Shown piece after piece: positions 12,899 to 64,000 of a stretch of DNA of 64,000 nucleotides. Made by a program: the position numbers and the translations under genes. Source of the stretch: Lachnoclostridium sp. UBA5890 (GTDB lineage: Bacteria; Bacillota; Clostridia; Lachnospirales; Lachnospiraceae). The notes below the pieces were generated by a model. It had not been told where the DNA came from and made no database searches. It saw nothing but the letters and a program-made list of their open reading frames with translations. How positions within the stretch are numbered: position 1 is the first letter of the stretch; every line of letters starts with the position of its first letter. The DNA lies in contig DJEU01000059.1 in NCBI GenBank assembly GCA_002431395.1, forward strand, positions 9,753-73,752, read 5' to 3'.

Positions 12899-12958
12899 TG
12901 CTACACTAGTACTGTTAAAAGAAGAACAGGAAAATGAAGTGAATGGAGACGGTTTTTT

Positions 12959-13822: not shown

Positions 13823-13925
13823 TATTGGTAAAATACGTGGAGTTCTCTGAATTTTTCGGGAACTCCGCTTGTGGTGAAACAAAAAATAAAAAATAGATAC
13901 AAACAACGAAGTGAGGTAAGAAAAA

Positions 13926-15332: not shown

Positions 15333-15359
15333 AAAATATACAATCGGAAGGAGATCATA

Positions 15360-46884: not shown

Positions 46885-46930
46885 CCTTAGAGTGGTTTAG
46901 AGGTTAGCTCCACAAATCCAGTATTTTCAA

Positions 46931-46973
46931 GGCCTGAGGCCGTGTGAAATTGCACGGTTTCAGGTCTTTTTTT
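46931..46973 (+). terminator. Intrinsic terminator after guaA
   Basis: Stem CCTGAGGCCGTG / CACGGTTTCAGG (two G-U pairs), followed by TCTTTTTTT. Confidence 0.75.
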
Positions 46974-47173
46974 GGCTGTTGCTTCTAAAATGATTCTAAT
47001 TTTCTAAAAGAAACCGAAGCGAAATAACTCCAAAACAAAGTTCAATTCTGTTTCTTATCTTTTATCTTCCTCAGATTTCAAAAAAATTAAATATTTTTGC
47101 TGTGATTAGTAATGAGCTTTTTTTCAACCCAAATGTATTACGTAAGAAAAACACGTAATTGGAGGTGAATGAA

Positions 47174-47395
47174 ATGTTTGAATGCAGAACCTTTATCACA
47201 GTAAAAGAAATCGGCGAAGTACTCGGTGTTTCGGAATCTAAGTCATATGGTATAGTTCGCGATTTGAATAAAGAACTTGCTGACAAGGGTTACATGGTTA
47301 TCCCCGGAAGAGTCAGCAGGAAATATTTCGAAGAGCGTTTCTATGGAGTAGTAAACGAAACAGAGGAAAAGGAGGAAAAGTATGCCGGCGAATAG
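47174..47395 (+). CDS. Excisionase-like / HTH DNA-binding protein
   Basis: GGAGG RBS precedes the ATG at 47174. 'FITVKEIGEVLGVSESKSYGIVRDLNKEL' is an HTH segment. The stop overlaps the integrase start. Confidence 0.65.
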   Translation: MFECRTFITVKEIGEVLGVSESKSYGIVRDLNKELADKGYMVIPGRVSRKYFEERFYGVVNETEEKEEKYAGE

Positions 47396-48479
47396 GGATA
47401 AAAAGACAGGCAAGTGGAACTCCCAGTTCTATTATACGGACTGGACAGGCAAAAAAATCAAAAAGATGAAACGTGGCTTTGAGACAAAAAAGGAAGCACA
47501 GGACTGGGAGCGACATTTTAAATTGGAAAAGGCGAGTAGCCTTGACATGACGTTCGGGGATTTTTACAGACGCTATGAAGAAGATGTTAAACCAAAGGTC
47601 AGAGAGAATACGTGGAATTCAAAAGTTTGGGTTATCGAAAAAAAGATTCTTCCATACTTTAAGGATCTTGTAATGAGAGATATTACTCCACGCGATGTCC
47701 TTGCTTGGCAGAACGAAATGAGAAAGTTGGAGTCAAAGGACGGAGAAAAATTTAAGGGAACGTATCTTAGAAAAATGCAGGCGGAACTTTCAGCCATATT
47801 TAACCATGCGGTGAAGTATTATGAATTGCCAAAGAATCCTGCAGTAATAGCTGGTCCACTTGGACAGTACCATGCAGATGAAATGCTTTTTTGGACAAAG
47901 GAAGAGTATATGCGCTTTATTCCTGAGGTTGCAAATAAAACTTATTCCTATATGGCATTTGAACTTTTGTATTGGTGTGGAATTCGAATTGGCGAGTTGA
48001 TGGCATTAACTCCTGCGGATTTTGATTTCAATAAGAATAAGCTTTCTATAACCAAATCTTATCAGAGAATCAGCGGAAGGGATGTTATTACAAAACCTAA
48101 GACTCCCAAAAGTGTGCGTATGATTTCTATGCCAGAGAATGTTGCATTAGAAATGAGAGATTTCCTTAATAGCATTTATGGCATTGAGCCGGGGGACAGG
48201 ATTTTTGTGATATCAAAGTCCTATCTGCATCATGAGATGGACAGGGGCGTAAAGGCGAGCGGTGTAAAACGTATTCGTCTTCATGATTTAAGACACAGTC
48301 ATGTATCTCTTCTTATCGACATGGGGTTCTCAGCTGTGGCTATCGGCAATCGTGTAGGGCATGAAAGTACGGAGATTACTTATCGATACGCACACATGAT
48401 GCCGTCAATTCAGGACGATATGGCAGAGGCGCTTGATGAAGAATGGAAGGAGGGATTTGATGTCAGCAAAGAATCTTGA
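47382..48479 (+). CDS. int: Tyrosine-type site-specific recombinase / integrase
   Basis: 365 aa. Contains an N-terminal SAM-like domain. The catalytic-region motifs are 'GIRIGELMAL', 'HDLRHSHVSLL', 'GHESTEITYRYAH'. Confidence 0.93.
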   Translation: MPANRDKKTGKWNSQFYYTDWTGKKIKKMKRGFETKKEAQDWERHFKLEKASSLDMTFGDFYRRYEEDVKPKVRENTWNSKVWVIEKKILPYFKDLVMRDITPRDVLAWQNEMRKLESKDGEKFKGTYLRKMQAELSAIFNHAVKYYELPKNPAVIAGPLGQYHADEMLFWTKEEYMRFIPEVANKTYSYMAFELLYWCGIRIGELMALTPADFDFNKNKLSITKSYQRISGRDVITKPKTPKSVRMISMPENVALEMRDFLNSIYGIEPGDRIFVISKSYLHHEMDRGVKASGVKRIRLHDLRHSHVSLLIDMGFSAVAIGNRVGHESTEITYRYAHMMPSIQDDMAEALDEEWKEGFDVSKES

Positions 48480-48855
48480 TCCAAAAGGAAGGCTGCGGAG
48501 CGAGACTATCGCTTATCGTTGTTCTCCTGCTGAAAGGAGGGAATTGGATAAGCGATGGAAACTGCTTGGATATGCGACAAAACAGGATTATGTTCTTGAC
48601 TCCGTATTGCATAACAAGGTTACGGCAAAGGGAAATCCTATGATGCTGGTGAATTTCCGAAAGGAACTGTATGGCATTCTTGGAGAATTGGAACGACGGG
48701 AAGAAGCCTCTGAGATAGACGAGGAACTTTTCACACCGATCCGCACTATGCTTGAAATCTTGGAAGCTTTTAAGGAAAACGAAGAGAAGAACAAAAAGAA
48801 TAAAACCAGAAGGAATGATAAGTTTTTGGAAAGGAGAGTTTATCGCGATGTGTAA
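48460..48855 (+). CDS. MobC-like / ribbon-helix-helix relaxosome accessory protein (putative)
   Basis: GGAGGG RBS precedes the ATG at 48460. 'RSETIAYRCSPAERRELDKRWKLLGYATKQDYVLDSVL' fits the MobC-type pattern. Confidence 0.5.
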   Translation: MSAKNLDPKGRLRSETIAYRCSPAERRELDKRWKLLGYATKQDYVLDSVLHNKVTAKGNPMMLVNFRKELYGILGELERREEASEIDEELFTPIRTMLEILEAFKENEEKNKKNKTRRNDKFLERRVYRDV

Positions 48856-49633
48856 AGTAATTATTTGTGCAAATCAAAAGGGAGGTGTCGCCAAGAGTAC
48901 ATCTGTTGTAAATCTTGGTATCGGACTCGCAAACAAAGGAAAGAGGGTTCTTGTTATCGATAACGATCCTCAGGGATCTCTTACAGAGGCTTTAGGATAT
49001 CCGGAGCCGGATAAGTTGGAAGTGACCCTTGCAAATGTTATGGACTGGGTATTGAACGAGGATGAATATGATTTGAAAGCTGGTATCCTGCATCATGAGG
49101 AAGGAATAGATCTTATGCCTGCCAATATCGAATTATCCGGTGTAGAGACATCGCTTGTAGGAATTATGAGTTCGGAGACAACGCTTCGTGAGTATGTCGA
49201 GACCATTAGGGATGATTATGATTACATCCTCGTGGATTGCTCACCAAACTTAGGACAGCTTACCTTAAATGCTCTTGTGGCGGCGGATGAGGTTATTATC
49301 CCGGTACAGGCCGCATACCTGCCTATAAAGGGTTTAGAACAGTTGTTAAAGACAATCAGTCGTGTAAAGCGTAAGATGAACCCGAAACTTCATATTATGG
49401 GCATTCTGATCACGATGGTGGATTACAGAACCATTTATGCTAAGGAGATTACGGAAGTGCTGTATGAGCATTATGGAAGTAGTATCCATATATTTAATGA
49501 TGTGATTCCGCTTTCCGTTAGAGCTGCGGAGGCATCTGCCGAAGGAGTCAGCATCTATAAATATGATGGCAAGGGTAAAGTAGCAGCGGCGTATGAAAAG
49601 ATTGTAGAGGAGGTTTTAGCCAATGAGCAGTAA
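48848..49633 (+). CDS. parA: ParA/Soj-family partition ATPase
   Basis: Deviant Walker A 'NQKGGVAKST', 'VLVIDNDPQGS', 'YDYILVDCSP'. The start ATGTGTAA overlaps the upstream stop. Confidence 0.92.
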   Translation: MCKVIICANQKGGVAKSTSVVNLGIGLANKGKRVLVIDNDPQGSLTEALGYPEPDKLEVTLANVMDWVLNEDEYDLKAGILHHEEGIDLMPANIELSGVETSLVGIMSSETTLREYVETIRDDYDYILVDCSPNLGQLTLNALVAADEVIIPVQAAYLPIKGLEQLLKTISRVKRKMNPKLHIMGILITMVDYRTIYAKEITEVLYEHYGSSIHIFNDVIPLSVRAAEASAEGVSIYKYDGKGKVAAAYEKIVEEVLANEQ

Positions 49634-50528
49634 GGGATTATCAAATAGAATCAAGCTTTCCAGCTATGATGATATGTTTTCGGCGGAGAATGATGGTAGT
49701 ACTACGACAGAAGCAAAACCTGTTGAGGGACAGATAGTAGAGATCCCTTTATCGGAACTGCATACCTTTGAAAACCATCCTTTTCGTGTTGTAGATGATG
49801 AAAACATGGAAGAAATGGTAGAGAGTGTTAAAGAGTATGGCGTGTTGGTTCCGGCTATCGCAAGACCTAGAGAAGAAGGCGGATATGAACTTATATCCGG
49901 TCACAGAAGAAAGCATGCATCCGAACTTGCAGGTAAAGATACCATGCCGGTTATTGTTCGTGATTGTGATAATGATGAAGCCGTAGTAATTATGGTGGAT
50001 GCCAATATCCAGCGTGAGGATATTCTTGTCAGCGAGAGAGCGAAGGCTTATCAGATGAAATATGAAGCTATGAAGCATCAGGGCAAGGCACAGGGGAACT
50101 CTTTGCAGGAAATGAGTGAGCAGGCAGGAGAAAGCATGAAGACCATTCAACGTCTGATCTGCATCGCCAGTTTGGACGAAAAGTTGCTTGCTATGGTGGA
50201 TGAAAAGAAGCTGGGACTTCGTCAGGGCGTGGATCTTTCTTTTATTCCGCAGGAACAGCAGAGAATCGTATATGAAGTTATTTCGGAGATGGGAGTGTCA
50301 CTTAGCCAGGAGCAGAGTGCAAGGATAAAGGAATCATCTCGTAAAGGTTATCTGAACGCAGATTTCCTAAAGGATTATCTGTCGGAGAAGAAGCCAAAAC
50401 CACGTAAGGTAGTATTTAACCAGAAAAAGTTGGACAACTATTTTACCCCGGATATGAGCAATGAGGATATCGAGGAGCTTATCGTAAAGCTTCTTGATGA
50501 ATGGAAGGAGAAAGGGGAACCGCGTTAA
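49623..50528 (+). CDS. parB: ParB/Spo0J-like nuclease-domain partition protein
   Basis: 'HPFRVVDDENMEEMVESVKEYGVLVPAIARP..GGYELISGHRRKHA' is a ParB N-terminal domain. Confidence 0.9.
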   Translation: MSSKGLSNRIKLSSYDDMFSAENDGSTTTEAKPVEGQIVEIPLSELHTFENHPFRVVDDENMEEMVESVKEYGVLVPAIARPREEGGYELISGHRRKHASELAGKDTMPVIVRDCDNDEAVVIMVDANIQREDILVSERAKAYQMKYEAMKHQGKAQGNSLQEMSEQAGESMKTIQRLICIASLDEKLLAMVDEKKLGLRQGVDLSFIPQEQQRIVYEVISEMGVSLSQEQSARIKESSRKGYLNADFLKDYLSEKKPKPRKVVFNQKKLDNYFTPDMSNEDIEELIVKLLDEWKEKGEPR

Positions 50529-51550
50529 TGGAGAGGCTGAAGCTGGAGTTTTATTATGGGCAAGAGGCAGAGCAGTTTACGTTCTACCGCCTGCCGAAGG
50601 CTTTGATAACAGACAACAGGTTTAAGGATATATCGAATAATTCCAAGCTTTTGTATGGACTGATGCTTGATCGTATGTCACTTTCCGTCAGAAGCGGATG
50701 GTTTGATGATCAGAACAGGGTTTATATCAAGTATTCAATAAAAAGTATTATGGAAGATCTTAACTGTAGCAAGATGACGGCGGTGGGGCTTTTGAAGGAG
50801 TTGCAGGCTATTGGATTAGTAGATATTGAGCAGAGAAACGGATTTGCAAATATCATCTACGTTAAGAACTTCGTATCCGGAGGAGAAGAAGAGTCATTAG
50901 ACCGGTCAGAAAATTGTACAGGTAAGGAAAATGAACCGGTGGTAGAACACCAGTCTAAAAATTCTACTGGTACAGGTATTAGGCCGGTAAATATGGAAGA
51001 CCAGTCAGATGTTAATACTGGTACCTGTCAGGAATCTATACCGGGGGTAGTACAGAAATCAGACCCGAATAATAATGATTTTAACAATATTGAATCTAGT
51101 GATACCGATCATATCATTCAATCTGGCAAGCGCATGGACATGTCTATCCGAGTTACGGGGATGGATCAGATGGATGAAACTACCGTATATATGGAGCTTA
51201 TTCGAGAAAACATTGATTATGACATCATGATGAGCAACAAGAAATGGTCTGACAGAGAAATGTATGACGAGCTTTATCAGTTAATCTGCGATGTTGTTTG
51301 TGTTCCGAGGAAGACTATCCGTATTGCAGGGGAAGACTATCCGTATAACTTGGTGAAGAGTAAGTTCCTGAAGCTCAATTCAACGCATTTGGAATATGTC
51401 ATCAGCTGCATGAAGAATAACACAACAAAGGTATCCAATATCAAAGCCTATTTGACAACAGCACTCTATAACGCACCGAATACCATCAGCCACTACTATA
51501 CGGCTGAGGTAAATCATGATATGTATGGTACAATATATCCGGAGGAATGA
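50528..51550 (+). CDS. RepA_N-type replication initiator-like protein
   Basis: Start at 'MERLKLEF' (TAATG overlap with parB). 'FTFYRLPKALITDNRFKDISNNSKLLYGLMLDRMSLS' is a RepA_N-like signature. The C-terminal domain is the type seen on Firmicutes ICEs. Confidence 0.75.
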   Translation: MERLKLEFYYGQEAEQFTFYRLPKALITDNRFKDISNNSKLLYGLMLDRMSLSVRSGWFDDQNRVYIKYSIKSIMEDLNCSKMTAVGLLKELQAIGLVDIEQRNGFANIIYVKNFVSGGEEESLDRSENCTGKENEPVVEHQSKNSTGTGIRPVNMEDQSDVNTGTCQESIPGVVQKSDPNNNDFNNIESSDTDHIIQSGKRMDMSIRVTGMDQMDETTVYMELIRENIDYDIMMSNKKWSDREMYDELYQLICDVVCVPRKTIRIAGEDYPYNLVKSKFLKLNSTHLEYVISCMKNNTTKVSNIKAYLTTALYNAPNTISHYYTAEVNHDMYGTIYPEE

Positions 51551-52055: not shown

Positions 52056-52153
52056 GAGACCATCAAAAGGAAGAGGCACTGGTACCGTGTCATTTCTTTT
52101 ACAAACCGGTTTTGAACATTTAAAAATATATCAATGCTATGGAGGATATAAAA

Positions 52154-52741
52154 ATGAACAAACAAGTAAAATTAAGTGATATTAAGGGACTATCCTTTAT
52201 CGGAGGTCAGATTACATCAAGAATAGAAGCAGATGAAAAGAAAAATGAAAGAGCAATTGGTACAGTAAAGGTCATTCCGCCGAAAGCCATTAAGGCTGGG
52301 AAGATCGAGCACGAAGAGTTATACGATGTCGATTATAAAACAGAGTTCGATGAAAAGAAGCTCACAAGAGCAGGAGATATCGTAGTAAAACTTTCCTCAC
52401 CATATGATGCGGCCTATGTAAGCGAGGAAGATGAAGGGCTTTTGATTACTTCCTTCTGCATCATCATCCGCAACACTGGAAAGAATGCATCATCGGAATT
52501 TATCACAGCATTTTGTAATTCAGGTGTTTACATGAGACAGGTCATGAATATGGTAAGTGGAGCAAAGGTTCCAATGCTAACCATAGGAAAGGTTAAGGAA
52601 GCAAAGGTAAATCTTCTGCCGATGGAAGAACAGGAGCAGGTGGCTCAGTTTTACAGAAACCTTTGTGAAAAGGAAGTTGTGATGGAGCAGATTATCTCTC
52701 TTGAAAAAGAGAAGCTGGATACAGTTTTAGGAGGTAATTAA
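52154..52741 (+). CDS. Half-size (single TRD) type I restriction-modification S-subunit-like protein
   Basis: GGAGGA RBS precedes the ATG at 52154, giving about 195 aa. It has one target-recognition-like domain plus a conserved C-terminal helix 'PMEEQEQVAQFYRNLCEKEVVMEQIISLEKEKL', as in HsdS conserved regions. Confidence 0.7.
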   Translation: MNKQVKLSDIKGLSFIGGQITSRIEADEKKNERAIGTVKVIPPKAIKAGKIEHEELYDVDYKTEFDEKKLTRAGDIVVKLSSPYDAAYVSEEDEGLLITSFCIIIRNTGKNASSEFITAFCNSGVYMRQVMNMVSGAKVPMLTIGKVKEAKVNLLPMEEQEQVAQFYRNLCEKEVVMEQIISLEKEKLDTVLGGN

Positions 52742-52742
52742 G

Positions 52743-54086
52743 ATGGCTGATATTAAGAACGTTGAAAAATATATTTGGGATATAGCCAACATTTGGCATA
52801 ACGCCGGAATGGATGGAACACAGTATGTAGGAAGTACCTTATATGTTATGTGTTTGAAGAAGATGGTTGAAGAAAATGCTTGTACAAATCCGAACTATAT
52901 GCCTTCAATCATAGAACTAACCAAAGTCCTTTACCGCCCGGTATCAACTGAAGACATAGAGGTTATCAGAAGAGCATCTGATATTCTGGAAGAAACATAC
53001 CAAGTTAAGAGAGGTTTACTCTCCGACGTGTTATCTTCTTTCAGATCAGAAGAGGAAGCATGGAAGAAAGCTTTTCTTGGTGTGGTTTCAGCAACAGCGG
53101 ATATTGTAGTAGACGAAGAAGGATATTATCCATACGCAACACAGCTAATTAATATGGCATCTAAAGATGCAAGAAGAAATACTGCGGAAAAGGTATCAAG
53201 TAATGCGGTGGCGGATTTGCTTAGTATCGCAGCGAATGTCCAGGATGGAGAAACCGTGCTTGATGGAACGATAGGATACGGATATTCAGCAATAAACGCT
53301 GTTAGAGGTAAAAAGGATGTAACTCTTTATGGTGTGGATATCAACACAGACTCCATTCAGGTAGCTACTTTATATATGATATTAAGCGGAATCCGCTTCG
53401 ATGTCATTCAAGAGGATTTTACTGCGATGGATTCTGCGTATGTAGCAGACAAAGTTGTAATGGATATTCCGTTTGGTATGCGACCTATGAATGAATTGGC
53501 AGGATATCAGCTTCACAGGGTAAAGAAATGGATGGATGCAGACTCATGTAAAGAAATGGAATGTCTCTTTATGGCAAGTGCATTAGATGCTATGGAAGAT
53601 AACGGAAGAGTGGCTTTGATTGTTCCGCAGGGTATCCTGTTCAAACAGACGAAAGCATTAAGTGCATTTCGCAAGAATCTGGTCAAGGAAGGTTTGCTCA
53701 AAGCAGTAGTTTCGTTACCTCCGGTATATAACAGTACGATGATTAATACGGCAATGCTTATCCTTGAACATAACAACAAGGATGTACTGTTTGTAGATGG
53801 CACATCTTTGGTTCAAAGAGAACGCAGAAATGATGCTTATATCACAGATGAGAATAAAAAGAAACTCAGCGAGATTCTTGAAGGCAAAAAGGTGGTTGAA
53901 GGTATTTCCTTTACAGTGCCTAACGCTGAAGTGATCGAGACTGGAGATTGGTCAATTTCAAAGTATATTGATGTTGATGAAGTGATTGAATTAAGGCCGA
54001 TTTCGGAAATAAATAAGGAATTGAAGCAGCTGTATAAGAGATTAGATGAATTAAATGCTGAAAGTTTTAATGAAAAACTAGAATGA
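52743..54086 (+). CDS. HsdM-like N6-adenine DNA methyltransferase with divergent catalytic motif
   Basis: Motif I-like 'VLDGTIGYG'. The motif IV position reads 'MDIPFG' instead of NPPY/F. The HsdM-like segment 'GRVALIVPQGILF...LRKNLVKEGLLKAVVSLP' is present. Confidence 0.75.
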   Translation: MADIKNVEKYIWDIANIWHNAGMDGTQYVGSTLYVMCLKKMVEENACTNPNYMPSIIELTKVLYRPVSTEDIEVIRRASDILEETYQVKRGLLSDVLSSFRSEEEAWKKAFLGVVSATADIVVDEEGYYPYATQLINMASKDARRNTAEKVSSNAVADLLSIAANVQDGETVLDGTIGYGYSAINAVRGKKDVTLYGVDINTDSIQVATLYMILSGIRFDVIQEDFTAMDSAYVADKVVMDIPFGMRPMNELAGYQLHRVKKWMDADSCKEMECLFMASALDAMEDNGRVALIVPQGILFKQTKALSAFRKNLVKEGLLKAVVSLPPVYNSTMINTAMLILEHNNKDVLFVDGTSLVQRERRNDAYITDENKKKLSEILEGKKVVEGISFTVPNAEVIETGDWSISKYIDVDEVIELRPISEINKELKQLYKRLDELNAESFNEKLE

Positions 54087-54179: not shown

Positions 54180-55742
54180 ATGATTGATACAAAGAAAGAG
54201 CAGGAAAGAGACGAATTACATCGCGCTATTTGGGCGATTGCAGATGAATTAAGAGGAGCTGTAGATGGATGGGATTTCAAGAACTATGTCCTTGGCACAA
54301 TGTTCTACAGATACGTTTCAGAGAACCTTACAAACTATGTGAACGAAGGTGAAGAAAAGGCCGGAAATACAGGATTTGATTACGCTAAAATGTCAGATGA
54401 TGAGGCAGAGACTGCAAGAAAGGATCTTGTACAGGAAAAAGGCTTCTTTATCCTTCCAAGCGAGCTGTTTTGCAATGTAAAGGCAAAGGCGGACGATGAT
54501 GAAAACCTTAATGAGACATTGGAGACAGTATTCCGTCATATTGAGGAATCCGCAAAGGGCAGTGAATCTGAAAGCGATTTTGAAGGCCTGTTTGATGACT
54601 TTGATGTAAACAGTAATAAGCTCGGTGCAACTGTGGCAAAGAGAAATGAAAAGCTTGCAAAGCTGCTCAAGGGTGTAGCTGAAATGAATCTCGGTGATGT
54701 TAAGAACCATGATATTGACGCATTTGGTGATGCATACGAGTATCTGATGACTATGTACGCATCCAACGCTGGTAAGAGCGGTGGAGAATTTTTTACCCCG
54801 GCAGATGTCTCTGAACTTCTTACCAGACTTGGAACTGTAGGCAAGACAGAAGTTAATAAGGTATATGATCCTGCGTGTGGATCTGGATCATTACTTTTGA
54901 AAGCGGAAAAGGTTCTTGGAAAAGACAAGGTGCGTAATGGATTCTTTGGACAGGAAATCAATATTACTACATATAACCTTTGTAGAATTAACATGTTCCT
55001 TCATGATGTAGGATTTGATAAGTTCAATATCGCATGTGAAGACACACTTACGGCTCCACAGCATTGGGATGATGAACCGTTTGAACTTATCGTGTCAAAT
55101 CCTCCGTACTCAATCAAATGGGAAGGTGACGAGAATCCGTTGCTTATCAATGACCCTCGTTTTGCACCGGCAGGAGTATTGGCACCTAAGAGCAAGGCAG
55201 ATATGGCATTTATCATGCATGCGCTTAGCTGGCTTGCAAATAACGGAACAGCAGCTATCGTATGTTTCCCGGGTATTATGTACAGAGGCGGCGCAGAACA
55301 GAAGATACGTAAGTACTTAGTTGACAATAACTATGTGGATTGTGTAATCCAACTCCCTGCGAATCTGTTTTTCGGAACTCCTATAGCTACATGCATAATG
55401 GTTTTAAAGAAGGGAAAGAAAAACAGTAATGTATTATTTATTGATGCCACAGAGGAATGCATTAAAGTTACGAACAATAATAAACTGACTGAAGAAAATA
55501 TAGATAGTATAGTAGAGTGGTTTGAAAAAAGAGAAAATGTTGAGCATAAGTCATTTTTGGCTTCTTATGAAGAGGTTGTGAAGAATAGCTACAATTTAAC
55601 TGTTAGTGTATATGTTGAAGCTGAAGATACACGAGAAATAATAGATATTAATCGTCTAAATGCAGAGATTAAAGAGATTGTACGTAGAGAAGAGTCCCTG
55701 CGTAAAGAAATAGATAAGATTATAGCGGAAATCGAGGTGTAA
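54180..55742 (+). CDS. hsdM: Type I restriction-modification system methyltransferase subunit
   Basis: HsdM N-terminal domain '[33 protein letters not shown]', motif I '[12 protein letters not shown]', motif IV 'SNPPYS'. Confidence 0.95.
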
Positions 55743-55743
55743 T

Positions 55744-56997
55744 ATGAGTAAAGTTGAAGAACTGATAAAAAAATATTGCCCAGAGGGAGTGCCATTTAAG
55801 CCTTTAGGTGAATGTGTTATTAAAGCAGAAAATATTAAATGGAAAAATGATGACAGAGATTTCCAGTATATTGATCTTACTTCAGTAGATAGAGAAACCC
55901 ATAGAATTATTGCGTGTTCTACAATTAACCGAGACAATGCTCCAAGCAGAGCTCAGCAGATTGTTCTTGAGGGGGATATCTTGTTTGGTGGTACAAGACC
56001 AATGCTGAAAAGGTATTGTATGGTACCTAAGGAATATGATGGACAAATATGCAGTACTGGTTTTTGTGTATTAAGAGCAAATGAAAGCATTATTTTGAAT
56101 AGTTGGATTTACCATATTATTTCATCAACTGAGTTTTATGCTCATGTAGAAAAATATCAGAAGGGTGCAAGTTATCCAGCTATAACGGATAATGAAGTTA
56201 AGCAGTTTGAAATTCCTGTACCCCCACTGGAAATACAACGTGAAATAGTCCAGATCCTGGACAAGTTCACGCTCCTTTCAGCGGAGCTTTCAGCGGAGCT
56301 TTCAGCGGAGCTTTCAGCTCGCAAAAAGCAATATGATTATTATGGAAATCAGTTGTTTGAGAGTATATCGGATGATGTTAATGTATCTACTGTGGGAGAA
56401 ATAATCACATCGCTGAAAACAGGACTTAATCCAAGGAAGAACTTTACTTTAAATGAGGCGGGGGCATGCTATCCGTATATCACAGGAAAAGATATATTCG
56501 ATAATCAGATAAATGTTACAGAAAGAACAGATAGAATCACACCGGAAGCACTTGAACTTATTAACAAAAGGGCACATCTGGAAAAAGGATTGCTATTATT
56601 TGCTAGTACAGGAACAGGCACGGTTGGACGAATGGCAATTATAGAGGAATACAATGATGATTGGGGAATGAGTGAAACATTATACGGTATAAAAGTAGAT
56701 GAAAAAGTTATCCTTCCACATTATTTAATGTTTTTCTTGTATTCCGTTGCGGCAAGAAAACAATTTGAACAAAAGATTACAAAAGGGTCTGTTCCACATT
56801 TAAAAGTTAAAGATCTTTTAGATGTAAAGATTCCAGTACCTTCTATTGAGGTTCAAACAAAAATAGTGGATGTACTAAGTCGGTTCGATAAATTATGTAA
56901 CGGAATGATGGAAGGACTACCTGCAGAAATAGAGGCCCGTCAAAAACAATATGAATATTACCGGGACAAGTTGTTGACATTTAAAGAAGCAGTTTAA
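55744..56997 (+). CDS. hsdS: Type I restriction-modification system specificity subunit (two TRDs)
   Basis: 417 aa with two TRDs. The central conserved region is 'PPLEIQREIVQILDKFTLLSAELSAELSAELSARKKQYDYY'. The C-terminal conserved region is 'PSIEVQTKIVDVLSRFDKL...EARQKQYEYYRDKLL'. Confidence 0.93.
   Translation: MSKVEELIKKYCPEGVPFKPLGECVIKAENIKWKNDDRDFQYIDLTSVDRETHRIIACSTINRDNAPSRAQQIVLEGDILFGGTRPMLKRYCMVPKEYDGQICSTGFCVLRANESIILNSWIYHIISSTEFYAHVEKYQKGASYPAITDNEVKQFEIPVPPLEIQREIVQILDKFTLLSAELSAELSAELSARKKQYDYYGNQLFESISDDVNVSTVGEIITSLKTGLNPRKNFTLNEAGACYPYITGKDIFDNQINVTERTDRITPEALELINKRAHLEKGLLLFASTGTGTVGRMAIIEEYNDDWGMSETLYGIKVDEKVILPHYLMFFLYSVAARKQFEQKITKGSVPHLKVKDLLDVKIPVPSIEVQTKIVDVLSRFDKLCNGMMEGLPAEIEARQKQYEYYRDKLLTFKEAV
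56284..56327 (+). repeat. In-frame 12-bp tandem repeat (CTTTCAGCGGAG, about 3.7 copies) encoding (L)SAE repeats in the hsdS central conserved region
   Basis: Three perfect copies at 56284-56295, 56296-56307 and 56308-56319, plus a partial copy to 56327. Confidence 0.9.
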
Positions 56998-57004
56998 GGA
57001 GGAG

Positions 57005-60000
57005 GTGTTAGCTGTGCCATATTTTAACATTGTTGCACAGACAAATGAAAATACAGTAGTTACAGAGTACGAGCCATCAAAGGCTCGCTCTGAAAGCTAC
57101 CAGTCGGAAGCTGCGCTGGAAGCAGAGTTTATAAAGCTACTGTCTGGGGAAAATGGCCAAGGCGGATTGGGGTATGAGTATCTTAAGATTCATCAGGAAT
57201 CTGATTTAATTGCAAACTTGCGTAAGCGCCTTGAAATGCTCAATGATTATCAGTTCTCTGATGGCGAGTGGGAAAGATTCTTCAGTGAATCCTTGGCAAA
57301 TCAGAATGAGGGTATTGTTGAGAAGACGAGAAAAATCCAGGAGGATAACATTCAGGTTCTTAAGCGTGATGATGGCAGTACAAAGAACATTGCCATTATT
57401 GATAAGAAGAACATTCACAACAACTTCCTTCAGGTTATCAATCAGTATGTTATCGGAACAGCAGATGGAGCTAAGCATGATAACCGCTATGATGTAACGA
57501 TTCTTGTTAATGGTTTGCCTTTGGTTCATGTCGAGCTTAAGAGACGTGGCGTTGCTATCAGAGAAGCATTTAATCAGATTAACAGATACCAGAGAGACAG
57601 CTTTTGGGCTGGATCTGGACTTTTTGAGTATGTTCAGTTATTTGTAATCTCTAACGGTACAAATACAAAGTATTACTCGAACAGCACGAGATTTAATGCT
57701 ATCAAGGATGCAAATGCATCAAAGACTAAGAAGGGCAAAACCAGTAATAGCTTTGAGTTTACATCATACTGGGCAGATTCAAAGAACAGAGTAATTGCGG
57801 ATCTTGTTGATTTTACAAAGACGTTCTTTGCAAGACATACAATCCTTAATATTCTTACGAAGTATTGTATCTTTACTTCAGAGAATATGCTTATGGTTAT
57901 GCGCCCTTATCAGATTACTGCGACGGAGCGTATTCTTAATCGTCTCGAGATTGCAAATAACTATAAAAAGTACGGCGACATTTCCGGAGGTGGCTACATT
58001 TGGCATACTACTGGTTCCGGAAAGACCCTCACTTCATTTAAGACTGCAAGGCTGGCATCCAATTTACCATACATTGATAAGGTACTTTTTGTCGTAGACC
58101 GTAAGGATCTGGATTATCAGACCATGAAGGAGTATGACAGATTCGAGAAGGGTGCTGCAAACAGTAATACCAAGACATCTATCCTTCAGAGACAGTTGGA
58201 GGATAAGGATAAGAATGGTGTATATCACGAGTATAAGATTATTATTACAACCATTCAGAAGCTTGCTACATTCATTAAGAAGAATAAAGAACATGAGATC
58301 TATAACAAGCATGTTGTTATTATTTTTGATGAATGTCACCGCAGTCAGTTCGGCGATATGCATGCTGCGATTGTAAAGCACTTTAAGAAGTATCATTTAT
58401 TCGGATTTACAGGTACGCCTATCTTCGCGACCAATATCGGTAGTACAAAAAAAACTACTTTCTTTACAACAGAGCAAACTTTTGGAGATCAGCTTCATTC
58501 ATATACCATCGTTGATGCTATCAATGATAAGAACGTTCTTCCGTTCCGTGTTGATTACATAAAGACAATGGACATTGATGATAATATCGAAGATGAAGAG
58601 GTGTGGGATATTGCCAGAGAAAAGGCTATGATGGCACCGCAAAGAATCTCTATGGTTACAAAGTATATTCTTGATAACTTTGATAGAAAGACCTATAGAG
58701 GCGATAAGTCATACGTTTATAATTCTTTGATTAACATTGAAGAGGTTGCATCTGCAAAGCAAGGAACCGTAGAAGAGATTAAACAGCAGCAAAGACTCAG
58801 CGGATTTAACTCAATATTTGCGGTAGCTTCCGTTCCGATGGCAAAGCTTTACTACGAAGAATTTAAGAAGCAGATGCAGGCGGATCCTTCTAAGAAGCTT
58901 CGCGTGGCTACAATCTTTAGTTTTGCTGCAAATGAAGAGGAGGCAGAAGAGGATAATGGTTTATTAGGCGAAGAAAATTCTGAGGATACATCAGCACTTG
59001 ATCAGTCAAGCAGAGACTTTTTGGAAGCTGCTATTGATGACTACAATAAGATGTTCAATACGAATTATGATACATCCAGCGATAAGTTCCAGAATTATTA
59101 CAAGGACGTATCTCTTAGAATGAAGAATAAGGAGATTGATCTTCTTATCGTAGTTAATATGTTCCTTACAGGCTTTGATGCTACAACGTTGAATACTCTT
59201 TGGGTTGATAAGAACCTGAAGATGCACGGACTGATTCAGGCCTTTTCAAGAACGAATAGAATCCTCAATTCTATTAAGACTTTCGGTAACATTGTATGCT
59301 TCCGTAATCTTCAGAAGAGAGTGGATTCAGCTATCTCTTTATTTGGAGATAAGGATGCAGGCGGCATTGTTTTGATGCAGAGCTTTAAGGACTACTATTA
59401 CGGTTATACCGGAGTAGATGACACACCGCATCCGGGCTATGTTGATATGATTGAAGAACTTACAACAAAGTTCCCTGTGGAAGAGGCTCGTATTGAAGGT
59501 GAAACCAATCAGAAAGCATTCATCTCATTATTTGGTGCAATCCTTAGAATGAGAAACCTGCTTAGCTCTTTTGATGAGTTTGCAGGAAAAGAGATTCTTT
59601 CTGACCGTGATATGCAAGACTACCTTGGAAAGTATCAGGATCTTCGCGATGAGTGGAAGCGTAAGAGAGAAGAACATGCAGCAGTAAATATTGATGATGA
59701 TATTGTATTTGAAATCGAGCTTATTAAGCAGATTGAGATCAATATTGATTACATTCTCATGCTGGTGAAGAAGTATCATGACAGCCACTGCGAGGATAAA
59801 GAGGTTCTTGTTACCATCAAGAAAGCGATTGCAGCAAGTCCTGAACTTAGAAGTAAGAAAGCTCTTATCGAAAACTTCATTGCCGGAATCAATGATGTTG
59901 ATGACATTATGACTGAATGGAACAACTATGTTGCAGCTCAGCGTGATCAGCAGCTTATTATTATCATTGATGAGGAAAAGTTACAGGAAGAAGCAACAAG

Positions 60001-60247
60001 AAGGTTCATAGAGTATGCTTTCCGTATCGGAGAAATCAAGACCACTGGTACAGACATTGATAAGATTCTTCCTCCAGTATCACGATTTGGTGGCAGTAAC
60101 AGATCAGAGAAGAAGGAGCGAGTTATCGAAAGACTGAAGGCATATTTTGAGAAGTTTCATAATATTGGGGAATCATTTAATGCTGATAATAGTTTGGATT
60201 ATAAAACAGATATCGATATAGGGGGCATAGATGCAGATGAAGAATAG
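57005..60247 (+). CDS. hsdR: Type I restriction enzyme R subunit (SF2 helicase-nuclease)
   Basis: About 1080 aa. Nuclease region 'RYDVTILVNGLPLVHVELKR', helicase motif I 'HTTGSGKTLT', motif II 'IIFDECHRS', and 'TGFDATTLN'. A GTG start at 57005 or 57014 follows the AAGGAGGAGG RBS. Confidence 0.95.
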   Translation: MLAVPYFNIVAQTNENTVVTEYEPSKARSESYQSEAALEAEFIKLLSGENGQGGLGYEYLKIHQESDLIANLRKRLEMLNDYQFSDGEWERFFSESLANQNEGIVEKTRKIQEDNIQVLKRDDGSTKNIAIIDKKNIHNNFLQVINQYVIGTADGAKHDNRYDVTILVNGLPLVHVELKRRGVAIREAFNQINRYQRDSFWAGSGLFEYVQLFVISNGTNTKYYSNSTRFNAIKDANASKTKKGKTSNSFEFTSYWADSKNRVIADLVDFTKTFFARHTILNILTKYCIFTSENMLMVMRPYQITATERILNRLEIANNYKKYGDISGGGYIWHTTGSGKTLTSFKTARLASNLPYIDKVLFVVDRKDLDYQTMKEYDRFEKGAANSNTKTSILQRQLEDKDKNGVYHEYKIIITTIQKLATFIKKNKEHEIYNKHVVIIFDECHRSQFGDMHAAIVKHFKKYHLFGFTGTPIFATNIGSTKKTTFFTTEQTFGDQLHSYTIVDAINDKNVLPFRVDYIKTMDIDDNIEDEEVWDIAREKAMMAPQRISMVTKYILDNFDRKTYRGDKSYVYNSLINIEEVASAKQGTVEEIKQQQRLSGFNSIFAVASVPMAKLYYEEFKKQMQADPSKKLRVATIFSFAANEEEAEEDNGLLGEENSEDTSALDQSSRDFLEAAIDDYNKMFNTNYDTSSDKFQNYYKDVSLRMKNKEIDLLIVVNMFLTGFDATTLNTLWVDKNLKMHGLIQAFSRTNRILNSIKTFGNIVCFRNLQKRVDSAISLFGDKDAGGIVLMQSFKDYYYGYTGVDDTPHPGYVDMIEELTTKFPVEEARIEGETNQKAFISLFGAILRMRNLLSSFDEFAGKEILSDRDMQDYLGKYQDLRDEWKRKREEHAAVNIDDDIVFEIELIKQIEINIDYILMLVKKYHDSHCEDKEVLVTIKKAIAASPELRSKKALIENFIAGINDVDDIMTEWNNYVAAQRDQQLIIIIDEEKLQEEATRRFIEYAFRIGEIKTTGTDIDKILPPVSRFGGSNRSEKKERVIERLKAYFEKFHNIGESFNADNSLDYKTDIDIGGIDADEE

Positions 60248-61661
60248 GATAAAACACCCTAAGGTTTTCATTTCTTATGCATGGGGATCACAAGAACATG
60301 ATGAGAAGGTTATTGCTTTGGCTACAAATCTTAAGGGAGATGGAGTGGATGTTGTTTTTGATAAATGGCAGTTAAAAGAGGGTAATGATACCTTTAAATT
60401 TATGGAAAAAAGTGTTTTAGATGAGAGCATTACTAATGTACTGATTCTGATAGATCCTATTTATGCAAAGAAGGCAAATGAAAGGGCTGGTGGCGTAGGT
60501 ACAGAAACACAGATTATTTCAACAGAGGTTTATAATAAGGTTGAACAGAGAAAGTTTATACCGGTTGTATTTGAAAGAGATGCCGAAGGAAATGTATGTA
60601 AACCGCAGTATTTAAAGGGACTTTTGCACTTCGATTTATCAATGCCTGACACATATGATACTGAGTATCAGAGAATGGTACGTACATTATATGGGATAGA
60701 TACATATAAGGAGCCAGAGCTGGGAAAACCTCCAGTGTGGCTAGAGGAGATTCCCAAGGTGTCATATAAGTCGAGGGTGACGAGCGATTTTTTTCGAGGA
60801 ACGGCAGGTGATGCCGTAAAAAAGAGTAAGTTTGCTGAAAATCTTGAGGAATTAAAAAAACAGATTTTGGGATATGAGTACACCGAAAAAGAAGTTATTC
60901 CGTGCTACCTTGAATTAATGCCTTTTAGAGATGAATTCCTTCTGCTTGTTAAAAGTACTGAGTACGTTCAGGAAGGGTATAAGCAGATAGCTAAATTTTT
61001 AGAAGAACTAATGTATGAAATACGCAGACAACAGACAAATTATGCTAATTTAAAGGTGACTTTTGTGCACGAGTGTTTTATATATGTGGTAGCGTATTAT
61101 CTAAAAAAGTGTGCAAATGAAGCTTTGAGATATGTTTTAAATAAGACATATTTTGCTGGTACTTCACATTTTAATCAGGACGCTGATAGTTATAACTGTT
61201 TTTACTGCTATAACGATGTCTTGGATAGTGCTATTTGTAAAAGAGATGGTAAGAATTATTATTGCGGAACCGCAGCACTGTGGATTGAGAACCTTAATGT
61301 AGAAGTATGTAATAAAGATGAGTTTGTTTCAGGAGATTTATTTTGCCATAGCGCGTCGCTTTTGATTTCCAACTATGAGAAAGATTGGGCATGGTTCCCT
61401 TTGACTTATGTTTATAATAGCGATGAGTATAGAGGTTTATTTGCAACGTATTCAAAAAGATTGATATCAAAGGAACATTTGGAAAACATGATGTATGTTC
61501 TTAATTTTGAATCAGTTGATGAGTTTAAACAACAATACAAAAATATCGAAGAAAAGTTTCATAAAGGAGATTTAAAAGAGTATCGTTATAGTAGTTGTTT
61601 TGAAACAGCCAAGAATTTCTGGAATTATATAAAGACTGAAGAATTAGGAACAAGAAATTAG
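60231..61661 (+). CDS. TIR/SEFIR-like domain protein with an uncharacterised alpha-helical, Cys-rich C-terminal domain
   Basis: The N-terminus 'PKVFISYAWGSQEHDEKVIALATNLKGDGVDVVFDKWQLKEG...ILIDP' follows the TIR/SEFIR beta-alpha pattern. The start overlaps the hsdR stop by 17 nt. I do not recognise the C-terminal ~300 aa. Confidence 0.65.
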   Translation: MQMKNRIKHPKVFISYAWGSQEHDEKVIALATNLKGDGVDVVFDKWQLKEGNDTFKFMEKSVLDESITNVLILIDPIYAKKANERAGGVGTETQIISTEVYNKVEQRKFIPVVFERDAEGNVCKPQYLKGLLHFDLSMPDTYDTEYQRMVRTLYGIDTYKEPELGKPPVWLEEIPKVSYKSRVTSDFFRGTAGDAVKKSKFAENLEELKKQILGYEYTEKEVIPCYLELMPFRDEFLLLVKSTEYVQEGYKQIAKFLEELMYEIRRQQTNYANLKVTFVHECFIYVVAYYLKKCANEALRYVLNKTYFAGTSHFNQDADSYNCFYCYNDVLDSAICKRDGKNYYCGTAALWIENLNVEVCNKDEFVSGDLFCHSASLLISNYEKDWAWFPLTYVYNSDEYRGLFATYSKRLISKEHLENMMYVLNFESVDEFKQQYKNIEEKFHKGDLKEYRYSSCFETAKNFWNYIKTEELGTRN

Positions 61662-61687
61662 CGTTAAGTGAGAGGGTGGTGTTTTGA

Positions 61688-62518
61688 ATGTATGGAAAAG
61701 CTATTGAACTCTTTCTTGTAAATGGATCCGCAGATAGTTTGACTACAGCGGAATTATCAAACTGGAATGGTAAAGCCATTAAGATCCCAAGAACAGAGAT
61801 TGCAGGATGTGACCGGGATGATATTAAAGGTGTCGGTGTGTACTTCTTAATGTGTCAGGAGGATGACGGAACGGATTCCGTGTATATCGGCGAAGCAGAA
61901 AACGTGTTGGATAGGCTTTCTCAACATCTTAGGGATTATCAGTCCGGCAAGGAGAAATATTACTGGAATACTGCGGTAATTTTTGTAGGTAGAGACTTGA
62001 ATAAAGCCTTAATTAGATATTTAGAGAATCGCTTTGTTGAGATTGCTAAGGAATGTGGCAGATATTCTGTCCTGACGAAGAACACGTATAAGAACACTGT
62101 ACTGAAAGAAGCACAGATTGCTACTATGGAAGAGTTTATAGATAATGTGAAGATCCTCATCAATACTCTTGGATATAAGGTTCTTGTGCCGGTTCCGAAG
62201 GCTGCAGATGATACGGTTTATCTGTATTGCAAGGGAATAGAGGCAAGTGCAAAAGGCTTTGTAAGTACAGGTGGATTCACAGTACTTTCAGGTTCAAAAA
62301 TATCAGACCATACAGTGCCGTCATTGGAGACCCAGGGTAAAGGTTATTATAATCTGCGAAATACACTTATCAAAGATGAAGTGATAAAAGATGGAGTATT
62401 CCAAAAGGATTATGAGTTTAGTGCACCGTCCGCTGCGTCAGCTGTAATACTTGGGCATACATCCAATGGTAATGTCGATTGGAAGACAGAGGACGGAACA
62501 AGATTAAAAGATTTATAA
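61688..62518 (+). CDS. GIY-YIG nuclease-domain protein with C-terminal DUF4357-like domain
   Basis: 'GVYFLM...SVYIGEAENVLDRLSQH', 'RYLENRF' and 'N' fit the GIY-YIG layout. The C-terminus 'FSAPSAASAVILGHTSNGNVDWKTEDGTRL' fits the DUF4357 pattern as I remember it. Confidence 0.7.
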   Translation: MYGKAIELFLVNGSADSLTTAELSNWNGKAIKIPRTEIAGCDRDDIKGVGVYFLMCQEDDGTDSVYIGEAENVLDRLSQHLRDYQSGKEKYYWNTAVIFVGRDLNKALIRYLENRFVEIAKECGRYSVLTKNTYKNTVLKEAQIATMEEFIDNVKILINTLGYKVLVPVPKAADDTVYLYCKGIEASAKGFVSTGGFTVLSGSKISDHTVPSLETQGKGYYNLRNTLIKDEVIKDGVFQKDYEFSAPSAASAVILGHTSNGNVDWKTEDGTRLKDL

Positions 62519-62585
62519 AGAACTGTAGATTTTGGTCCGCTGGATCAGAAGCTGAAATTGCTTTAGCAATAGGAGGTAAACATCT

Positions 62586-63119
62586 GTGGATAATAGTTTT
62601 ATAGAGGAATTGCTTAATCATCCATTTGAAAAGAAGAGGATTAAGTCATTAAGAGGAGAATTCTGGATAGAGGAAGTTTTTACAAATAAGGATAATCATA
62701 TAGATGGTGAAATACGTTGTGGTATTCAGGGCGATGATTTTTGGAATGGTAGTGTGGAGGTTTACATAGAAATCGAAAAATTTAAAAATGAACATCATGC
62801 TGGATTTGGTCATTTGGAAGTACCCTCAAGGATTAGTAATCATGGAATAGGCACAACACTTATGCTTTCCGTTATTGATACAATAAAGGCTTTTAAGGAA
62901 TTTTATTCGGTAGGAGAAACAGTGAGTGTAAGTGGCTGGTTATCTACGTCGGATAAACAAAACGGGAATTGGAACAAGTCGGTTCCTCTTTACGAAAAGA
63001 TAGGGCACTTAGCAAATGTAGAAAGCTATTTTACCATCAAGAATGATGAAAATCATTATACAGCAGAAGATTTTTTGCGTATATCAAATGACGATGGAAG
63101 TATTATTTATTTGATTTAA
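62586..63119 (+). CDS. Hypothetical protein, possibly GNAT-fold acetyltransferase-like
   Basis: GTG start lies 9 nt after an AGGAGG RBS. 'ISNHGIGTTLMLSVIDTIKAF' resembles GNAT motif A (x-x-G-x-G). The assignment is weak. Confidence 0.4.
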   Translation: MDNSFIEELLNHPFEKKRIKSLRGEFWIEEVFTNKDNHIDGEIRCGIQGDDFWNGSVEVYIEIEKFKNEHHAGFGHLEVPSRISNHGIGTTLMLSVIDTIKAFKEFYSVGETVSVSGWLSTSDKQNGNWNKSVPLYEKIGHLANVESYFTIKNDENHYTAEDFLRISNDDGSIIYLI

Positions 63120-63135: not shown

Positions 63136-64000
63136 TTGCCTTTTCAGATTATTAGAAATGACATAACAAAGGTAAAAGCAGATGCCATAGTAAATACGGC
63201 AAATCCGAACGTTGCCGTTGGCGATGGTGTAGATTCTGCTATATATAAAGTAGCCGGTAAGGAAAAACTTCTTGAAGCCCGTAAGAAGATCGGGCTTCTG
63301 ATGCCTGGAGAAGTAGCAATTACAGATGCCTTTGATCTTGATGCAAAGTATATCATTCATGCAAGTGGTCCATGGTGGACGGATGGAAGCAAAGGCGAGG
63401 AAGCGTGTCTTCGTTCTTGTTATGAAAAAGCTTTGCAGTTGGCAAAAGACCACGGATGTAATTCCATTGCATTTCCGCTTCTTGCCACGGGCACATATGG
63501 TTTTCCGAAGGAGCTTGGAATACAGATTGCCGTTGATACTTTTACAGCTTTCTTGGAAGACAATGACATAGAGATTACGCTTGCTGTATTTGGTAGCGAG
63601 GATGTTACTATTTCCGGTAAGCTTGTAGAAGATGTAGCCAGCTTTGTTGATGACGGCTACGTAGCAACAGCTCTTGCTGAGGAATACCGAAATGACAATT
63701 ATCCGCGTGAAATAGGAAAACGTCCGGAGAGCAGAGTAGGTTCTACAGTGCAATCTTTCCATATACCATCATTCCTGCGAAGAGAAAACAAGGATGAAGA
63801 GGAAGATAGTTTTGATGCGCTTCCTTTAGAGGAAGAGGCTAAAGAAGATGAAGCACCTTCGGTTATGATGCCGGAGTATCTTAAACCGGTTTCCTTTGAA
63901 AAGAAGACAGAGTCTTTAGAGGATGCGTTAAAGGAAATCTATACGGATTCTTTTGAAAAGCATTTACAGCAGCTTATCAATAAAAAGGGGCTTAAAAACT
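63136..64000 (+). CDS. Macro-domain (ADP-ribose binding/hydrolase) protein, 3' end outside the window
   Basis: Not in the ORF track because it is open at the window end. TTG at 63136 follows a GGGAGGTGAGG RBS. My translation is 'LPFQIIRNDITKVKADAIVNTANPNVAVGDGVDSAIYKVAGKEKLLEARKKIG..GEVAITDAFDLDAKYIIHASGPWW...NSIAFPLLATGTYGFPKE', a classic macro-domain pattern. The frame stays open through 64000 with an acidic linker. Confidence 0.8.
   Translation, partial: MPFQIIRNDITKVKADAIVNTANPNVAVGDGVDSAIYKVAGKEKLLEARKKIGLLMPGEVAITDAFDLDAKYIIHASGPWWTDGSKGEEACLRSCYEKALQLAKDHGCNSIAFPLLATGTYGFPKELGIQIAVDTFTAFLEDNDIEITLAVFGSEDVTISGKLVEDVASFVDDGYVATALAEEYRNDNYPREIGKRPESRVGSTVQSFHIPSFLRRENKDEEEDSFDALPLEEEAKEDEAPSVMMPEYLKPVSFEKKTESLEDALKEIYTDSFEKHLQQLINKKGLKN

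Follow-up and report, generated by a model that had tools for sequence, protein, structure and literature searches.

SEFIR was described as a single-gene anti-phage system with homologues in 460 genomes (Millman et al. 2022, 10.1101/2022.05.11.491447). In that preprint, a single gene from Bacillus sp. NIO-1130, expressed from its native promoter, protected B. subtilis from phi29, and the substitution D40A abolished defence; D40A is the sole mutant that the preprint describes, and it was aimed at the contact between SEFIR domains and not at a catalytic site. Later papers, from the discovering laboratory and from others, state that the single-protein SEFIR system depletes nicotinamide adenine dinucleotide (NAD+) by means of the SEFIR domain at its N terminus, and that a phage NAD+-reconstitution pathway, NARP1, overcomes SEFIR defence. 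A homologue from S. thermophilus is active and has a narrow phage range. Yang et al. (2018), as quoted in the Millman preprint, proposed that bacterial SEFIR domains are general protein-protein interaction modules. A second relevant system is PrrC, an anticodon nuclease that, according to two papers (PMC1484252, PMC3458546), is silenced by the type Ic restriction-modification (R-M) system EcoprrI and triggered by the phage Stp peptide. Here we analyse a putative SEFIR gene that follows hsdR, the restriction-subunit gene of a type I R-M operon, in a stretch of 64,000 nucleotides (nt) from Lachnoclostridium sp. UBA5890 (GenBank assembly GCA_002431395.1, contig DJEU01000059.1, positions 9,753 to 73,752 of the forward strand), referred to below as the window. 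A first-pass annotation, made from the letters alone, had read the product as a TIR/SEFIR-like protein with an unrecognised Cys-rich helical C-terminal domain, translationally coupled to hsdR and possibly wired to the R-M system as an abortive backup.

Judged by its sequence, the window protein is an ordinary member of the published single-gene bSEFIR family; it is already known in kind and is no new effector. We place it in this known, experimentally supported family because of three observations: (i) a full-length match to the PADLOC model bSEFIR (PDLC03957), which covers amino acids (aa) 2-475 in a single stretch (profile positions 33-385 of 412, 2.4e-87, 292 bits); (ii) the presence of close homologues in Table S6 of Millman et al.; and (iii) a SEFIR match that is N-terminal and stronger than the TIR match, which is how that preprint defines a SEFIR instance (10.1101/2022.05.11.491447). 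The bSEFIR score is beyond the reach of a SEFIR domain alone, and therefore the C-terminal 300 aa belong in the family model. Table S6 lists the contigs of two loci from the survey described below, L002 (Gemella cuniculi H612DRAFT_scaffold00018.18, 89% identical to the window protein) and L056 (Ruminococcaceae AB4001 scaffold00027.27, 41% identical); by genome it also lists Murdochiella massiliensis SIT12 (L003, 88% identical), Fusibacter sp. 3D3 (L043) and Bacteroidales Bact_20 (L069). With a full-length family match and tabled homologues that are 88-89% identical, the view that the protein was unrecognised has to be given up. PADLOC models of TIR type gave weak matches to the window protein (2e-3). 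Homologues number at least 784, and most are full length.

The window copy shares with bSEFIR an N-terminal SEFIR domain of ~160 aa and a helical C-terminal domain of ~300 aa in a total of 470-490 aa, as well as a location in a defence island. We found no difference in kind. What sets the window copy apart is its setting in a gut Clostridia-type genome, where an integrative element carries it at the 3' end of a type I R-M operon and its start overlaps the preceding stop codon; for the validated copy, the native promoter was cloned along with the gene. We note that full-length bSEFIR homologues, 33-44% identical, also occur in an archaeal metagenome-assembled genome (MAG) of Methanomassiliicoccus (L022), in a Myxococcales MAG (L045) and in a Mycoplasmataceae MAG (L070). 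Homologues in an archaeon and in distant bacterial phyla are consistent with wide spread of the whole two-domain gene by horizontal transfer.

The N-terminal SEFIR domain, the presumed NADase effector, occupies 60258..60713 of the + strand (aa 10-161), as defined by Pfam, PDB entry 5Y8E, Foldseek and invariant columns. The first-pass assignment of this part to the TIR/SEFIR type was borne out by significant profile matches and by the fold. Pfam SEFIR matches aa 10-135 (4e-18, 66.6 bits) and TIR_2 matches more weakly (4e-15, 56.8 bits), while aa 10-161 match the crystal structure 5Y8E of the Bacillus cereus protein BcSEFIR at E=1.6e-27, common GGVGTET motif included. In Foldseek searches, the AlphaFold model aligned with 5y8e/5y8f at a template modelling (TM) score of 0.78-0.80, target-normalised; the SEFIR assembly of Act1/IL-17R came next, and TIR domains of SPARTA were matched at E about 3e-3. 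The N-terminal domain is about 50% identical to BcSEFIR (5Y8E/5Y8F; Yang et al. 2018), which differs in that its solved structure comprises the SEFIR domain only.

Among 39 homologues with 48-96% identity, D44 (in VVFDKW), E92 and the motif GGVGTETQIIS are invariant. D44 aligns with the aspartate of VILDRW in BcSEFIR and is the presumed counterpart of D40 in the validated NIO-1130 protein. E92 sits at what we take, from TIR topology, to be the position of the catalytic glutamate in TIR NADases. The window protein resembles TIR NADase effectors (Thoeris ThsB/TIR, SPARTA TIR-APAZ and TIR-STING) in its flavodoxin-like TIR/SEFIR fold and in its predicted outcome, NAD+ depletion and abortive infection. 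It differs from them in that its SEFIR profile outscores TIR, and in being a single protein without a partner sensor, Argonaute or cyclic-nucleotide signal.

The C-terminal part (60756..61658, + strand; aa 176-476) is a family-specific, all-alpha domain that we presume to be a sensor or regulatory module; it was delimited with an AlphaFold 2 (AF2) model and with profile and fold searches. Modelled on its own, the domain has about 14 helices, with a predicted local distance difference test score (pLDDT) of 80.6 and a predicted TM score (pTM) of 0.85. Foldseek searches with this C-domain-only model brought up nothing meaningful in either PDB or BFVD, where the best E values were 0.14 and 0.29, respectively, and the matches were non-specific, namely helical repeats, designed ones in PDB, at a TM score of 0.33 or less. 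With the full-length model, matches were confined to the SEFIR/TIR part. Pfam and NCBIfam gave no match to the C-domain, the PDB copy that we searched held no structure covering a bSEFIR C-terminal domain, and our literature search found no paper on a full-length bSEFIR structure or on the mechanism of the C-domain. The first-pass statement that this half matches nothing recognisable was thus correct as far as relatives outside the family are concerned.

The same annotation had stressed the richness of this region in Cys, Tyr and aromatic residues. The composition is as stated: the 301 aa of the domain include 10 Cys (3.3%), 28 Tyr (9.3%) and 20 Phe (6.6%). The Cys-richness, however, is not conserved. 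Only two of the ten cysteines are kept among the 39 homologues, C360 in 39/39 and C372 in 38/39, and those of the stretch that had been quoted as 'CFYCYND..' are replaced by V, S, D or N. We therefore rejected a Cys-rich metal-binding domain: because the C-domain cysteines are mostly not conserved, a metal cluster is unlikely, and the Cys-richness appears to be a trait of the lineage of the window protein and not a metal-binding motif. About 30 C-domain positions are invariant in these homologues, including R233, E258, H280-E281, K305, D339, D369, W388-F389-P390, Y393 and Y395 (WFP..Y.Y), and E415.

The C-domain alone is homologous to that of the Bacillaceae member L078 (6e-16). An exhaustive phmmer search of 1.84 billion representatives identified 177 clusters that carry it, and complete proteins among the matches listed were mostly 445-493 aa long. 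We checked ten C-domain clusters by Pfam and sequence. Six were complete proteins with an N-terminal SEFIR domain, and three without a Pfam match were N-terminally truncated SEFIR proteins; P0263 was also among those checked and was placed in no class. P0162 (646 aa) carries a Ser/Thr protein kinase (Pfam Pkinase 5e-28, aa 54-264) ahead of a bSEFIR-type C-domain (BLASTP 2e-36 over about 295 aa) and was the sole alternative effector on a C-domain among the checked proteins. Because of this fusion, we infer that the N-terminal position may be a slot for exchangeable effectors and that the C-domain may be the constant sensing or regulatory part.

We then consider how the gene is joined to hsdR. 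The open reading frame (ORF) at 60231..61661 of the + strand is as the first-pass annotation had described it, with its start inside the end of hsdR and behind a G run resembling a ribosome-binding site (RBS). The junction (60220..60247, + strand) consists of the run AGGGGG at 60220-60225, ATG 60231, ATG 60237 and the hsdR stop codon TAG at 60245-60247. ATG 60231 lies 17 nt within hsdR and gives a protein of 476 aa. The second in-frame ATG, at 60237 (MKNRI...), gives 474 aa and is where most homologues begin; the sister loci L001 and L005 lack the first ATG, yet the junction GGGGGCATAGA..CAGATGAAGAATAG is kept. Because of these two observations, the true start is probably 60237, with an overlap of 11 nt. 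The overlap that had been reported is real, but the ATG that had been chosen for it is probably not the correct one. Junction conservation was seen in L001, L005 and L007.

A consensus scan of 59500-62800 revealed no terminator-like site on the + strand, and the 15 promoter-like matches were at chance level, given a shuffled expectation of 10.5 +/- 3.6. The absence of a terminator-like site and the overlap both fit the proposed co-transcription with hsdR. The SEFIR stop is separated by 26 nt from the start of the next gene, a candidate defence gene termed PDC-S14. An identical SEFIR protein is encoded on ten metagenome contigs, and in all six places shown (6/6), hsdR is directly upstream and PDC-S14 directly downstream.

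To place this arrangement in the family, we scanned one genome per species, which gave 392 bSEFIR-encoding loci, and examined the best 80. Neighbours were defined as the nearest non-overlapping called ORFs and annotated with Pfam and PADLOC. Among 66 evaluable upstream neighbours, 11 (about 17%) were type I HsdR and two were HsdS, together 13/66 (20%); these counts are raw with respect to shared ancestry and describe the bSEFIR family alone. An HsdR of EcoR124 type is upstream in the clade of the window (L001, L005, L007, L008 and L009) and one of EcoEI type in L010 and L011; the other loci with HsdR upstream are L042, L080, L032 and L062, the last in a Bacteroidetes genome with a SEFIR protein just 33% identical. 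HsdS is upstream in L045 and L056. The remaining upstream neighbours include type III Res (2), AlwI nuclease (3), BrxC (2), DNA methylases, recombinases and unrelated genes, and R-M or BREX genes make up about one third of the upstream neighbours at the 66 loci. For nine of the 11 HsdR loci, the gap to the SEFIR gene lies between -16 and +35 nt, with tight junctions independent of the window clade in L042 (5-nt gap) and L080 (14-nt overlap). Across the survey, 72 upstream neighbours were scored for orientation: 58 point the same way as the SEFIR gene, 28 of them at a distance of no more than 50 nt. bSEFIR thus often stands last, and probably without a promoter of its own, in a restriction operon.

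Homologues do, then, associate with R-M loci. The link to hsdR is genuine and has recurred with several HsdR families that are unrelated to each other, yet it is not obligate: in the clade with at least 76% identity, five loci follow HsdR and four do not. The four without HsdR upstream are 82-89% identical and are preceded by small ORFs (L002, L003), an AlwI nuclease (L004) or an ORF on the opposite strand (L006). The idea of an effector wired to type I R-M as a backup is thus weakly supported. The 3' placement recurs, in 13/66 loci and with several HsdR families, but such close relatives do without HsdR and the Bacillus homologue works alone.

Based on family membership, architecture and gene order, we consider it very probable that the window gene is an autonomous abortive-infection gene, a bSEFIR NADase system co-expressed with an R-M operon; an abortive-infection effector role, as had been proposed from the letters, is plausible for a member of this family. 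The helical C-terminal domain would silence the protein as long as no phage cue has been sensed. Once it has, the SEFIR domains would associate by contacts with one another and split NAD+ by hydrolysis into ADP-ribose and nicotinamide, and the loss of NAD+ would arrest the infected cell and abort the phage, as described for other family members. In the window, the SEFIR gene comes fourth in an operon, after hsdM, hsdS and hsdR and ahead of PDC-S14; the operon lies on an integrase/ParAB/RepA element beside guaA. Transcription of the SEFIR gene most likely starts from the R-M promoter and its translation is most likely by ribosomes finishing hsdR, because the SEFIR start overlaps the hsdR stop. 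The coupling would be one of expression and of defence-island packaging, so that two layers of defence, restriction and abortive infection, share both their inheritance and their expression, with no physical dependence on HsdR. Several points weigh against this account. The NADase activity and the catalytic residue of the window protein are predictions; the correspondence of D44 to D40 is presumed; the sensor role of the C-domain is an assumption, and the many polar and aromatic residues that are invariant in it could just as well make up the active site of an enzyme or bind a ligand; and the repeated tight docking 3' of restriction genes leaves room for a functional link.

Such a link could take the form known from PrrC. 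The SEFIR protein might be held latent by the type I R-M complex, or might monitor it, with the NADase firing when an anti-restriction protein of a phage, such as Ocr, ArdA or a Stp-like one, disables HsdR. The survey offers this guard some support: the upstream gene is HsdR in 11/66 loci and HsdS in 2/66, the HsdR proteins fall into at least five unrelated lineages (the EcoR124-like window clade, EcoEI-like L010/L011, L042/L080, L032 and L062), and the spacing in 9/11 HsdR cases is as tight as given above (-16 to +35 nt). Placement is also asymmetric, since 13 loci have SEFIR at the 3' end of type I genes, and in only two or three is the order reversed, with a type I or N6-methylase gene directly downstream. 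PrrC/EcoprrI provides the precedent (PMC1484252, PMC3458546), as an abortive-infection effector inside or next to a type I operon that forms a second layer behind restriction. PrrC, however, combines an ABC-ATPase with a tRNase, is physically silenced by EcoprrI and, according to PMC3458546, is always R-M linked, whereas bSEFIR is a NADase (by prediction for the window protein), has an R-M link in no more than about 20% of its loci and needs no partner, the validated homologue being a single gene in a heterologous host. At about 80% of the loci, the upstream neighbour is not a type I gene. That the linked HsdR proteins come from different families speaks against a single, specific interface between the two proteins, and the C-domain does not co-vary with HsdR in the closest clade, which splits into five loci with HsdR and four with none. 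A surface dedicated to binding HsdR would be expected to co-vary with its partner, which is not what we see. On balance, we regard a guard of this kind as improbable. There is a broader version, to which we likewise give little credence, in which bSEFIR genes were captured repeatedly and independently as the last, translationally coupled gene of restriction operons (those of at least five hsdR lineages, type III res, AlwI and BREX brxC), reflecting a functional partnership in which the C-domain senses the failure or the product of restriction. If this were true, SEFIR would be a general 'restriction-failure alarm' and not a free-standing sensor of phage proteins, and the C-domain might respond, for example, to anti-restriction proteins, to HsdR that has stalled, or to signals in the form of DNA ends or nucleotides.

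A different possibility concerns the division of labour within the protein. The SEFIR domain could be an oligomerisation or adaptor module only, as in IL-17R/Act1, and the C-terminal domain the true effector, an unrecognised enzyme or toxic module. This would agree with the proposal of Yang et al. (2018), as quoted in the preprint, that SEFIR domains are interaction modules, with the position of the sole preprint mutant, D40A, at the SEFIR-SEFIR contact and not at a catalytic site, and with a C-domain in which roughly 30 residues are invariant, among them the pair H280-E281 as well as several Asp, Glu, Lys and Arg. Later papers, however, assign NAD+ depletion to the N-terminal SEFIR domain and report that NARP1 cancels the defence. 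The kinase/C-domain fusion P0162 suggests the opposite arrangement, an exchangeable N-terminal effector slot on a constant sensing part. In addition, E92 lies in an invariant motif at what is presumably, from TIR topology, the catalytic-Glu position of TIR NADases. We therefore think it very unlikely that SEFIR serves as an adaptor only, and retain the autonomous, co-expressed NADase as our interpretation.

The surroundings of the gene form a defence island, with hsdMSR upstream and PDC-S14 downstream. The three R-M genes are all present and intact and lie in one operon on the + strand. The methyltransferase gene hsdM (54180..55742) matches Pfam HsdM_N (5e-22) and N6_Mtase (4e-113), and the specificity-subunit gene hsdS (55744..56997) matches Methylase_S in two stretches (8e-34). 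The restriction-subunit gene hsdR (57005..60247) matches HSDR_N (4e-45), ResIII (1e-40), T1R_D3-like (4e-62) and, at its EcoR124-like C-terminus, EcoR124_C (4e-69); SWI2_SNF2 was matched as well as ResIII. PDC-S14 (61688..62518, + strand) encodes a GIY-YIG nuclease with DUF4357 (PADLOC PDC-S14 5.4e-95; Pfam DUF4357 2.7e-16, GIY-YIG 8e-5) and is preceded by its own RBS-like site, GAGAGGGTGG. Among the 80 survey loci, PDC-S14 stands beside SEFIR only in the sister locus L005.

We observed that hsdS differs among contigs encoding the identical SEFIR protein (55744-56997 in the window versus 5526-6767 in L081 and 5514-6767 in L082), with products of 413 versus 417 aa. This suggests that the specificity subunit may have been swapped within an otherwise conserved island. 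Ahead of hsdMSR, at 52139-54086, a half-size S subunit of 200 aa is paired with an N6 adenine methylase of 447 aa. Besides models for type I MTase and Specificity, this pair matches mad2 and mad5 of MADS, and no second restriction subunit was found near it.

Further upstream, at 45346-51550, guaA (GMP synthase, 45346-46884) precedes genes for a tyrosine integrase (47382-48479), for ParA and ParB, and for a protein with RepA_N/DUF6017. From the integrase, ParA, ParB and RepA_N genes after guaA, it follows that the defence genes are cargo of an integrative element inserted beside guaA, resembling an integrative and conjugative or integrative and mobilizable element (ICE/IME-like).

Downstream of PDC-S14 is an ORF of 177 aa (orf177, 62586-63119), which is conserved in L005 (6.5e-109) and in those contigs with the identical SEFIR protein that reach that far. 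It gave no significant Pfam, NCBIfam or PADLOC match, and a sub-threshold match to Pfam Acetyltransf_CG (E=0.046). Beyond SEFIR, PDC-S14 and orf177, the + strand continues with a string of genes whose products are a protein of 381 aa with a Macro domain (Pfam Macro 2.9e-33), one of 230 aa (orf230) without matches and an ADP-ribosylglycohydrolase (261 aa). The Macro gene (63136-64000) exits the end of the window, and the string is continued in L081 at 12906-15647. PADLOC matched neither the Macro protein nor orf230 nor the ADP-ribosylglycohydrolase as a defence component. Genes whose products bind or remove ADP-ribose lie 1.5-4 kb downstream of a predicted ADP-ribose-producing NADase. We considered a general linkage of Macro with SEFIR and rejected it, as a Macro homologue occurs in only 2 of the 80 loci (L005 and L010), both on similar elements; the Macro gene tracks the element backbone rather than SEFIR.

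As a finding, the window gene adds a further copy to the catalogue of a defence gene that is already known. Its residual value lies in the C-domain, a presumed sensor without structural relatives, solved or predicted, in PDB or BFVD, and once fused to a kinase. The Macro and ADP-ribosylglycohydrolase genes beside a predicted producer of ADP-ribose deserve attention. The survey figure of about 17% of loci directly 3' of hsdR, or 20% with hsdS, could guide a test of whether R-M and abortive infection are co-expressed or act in synergy.

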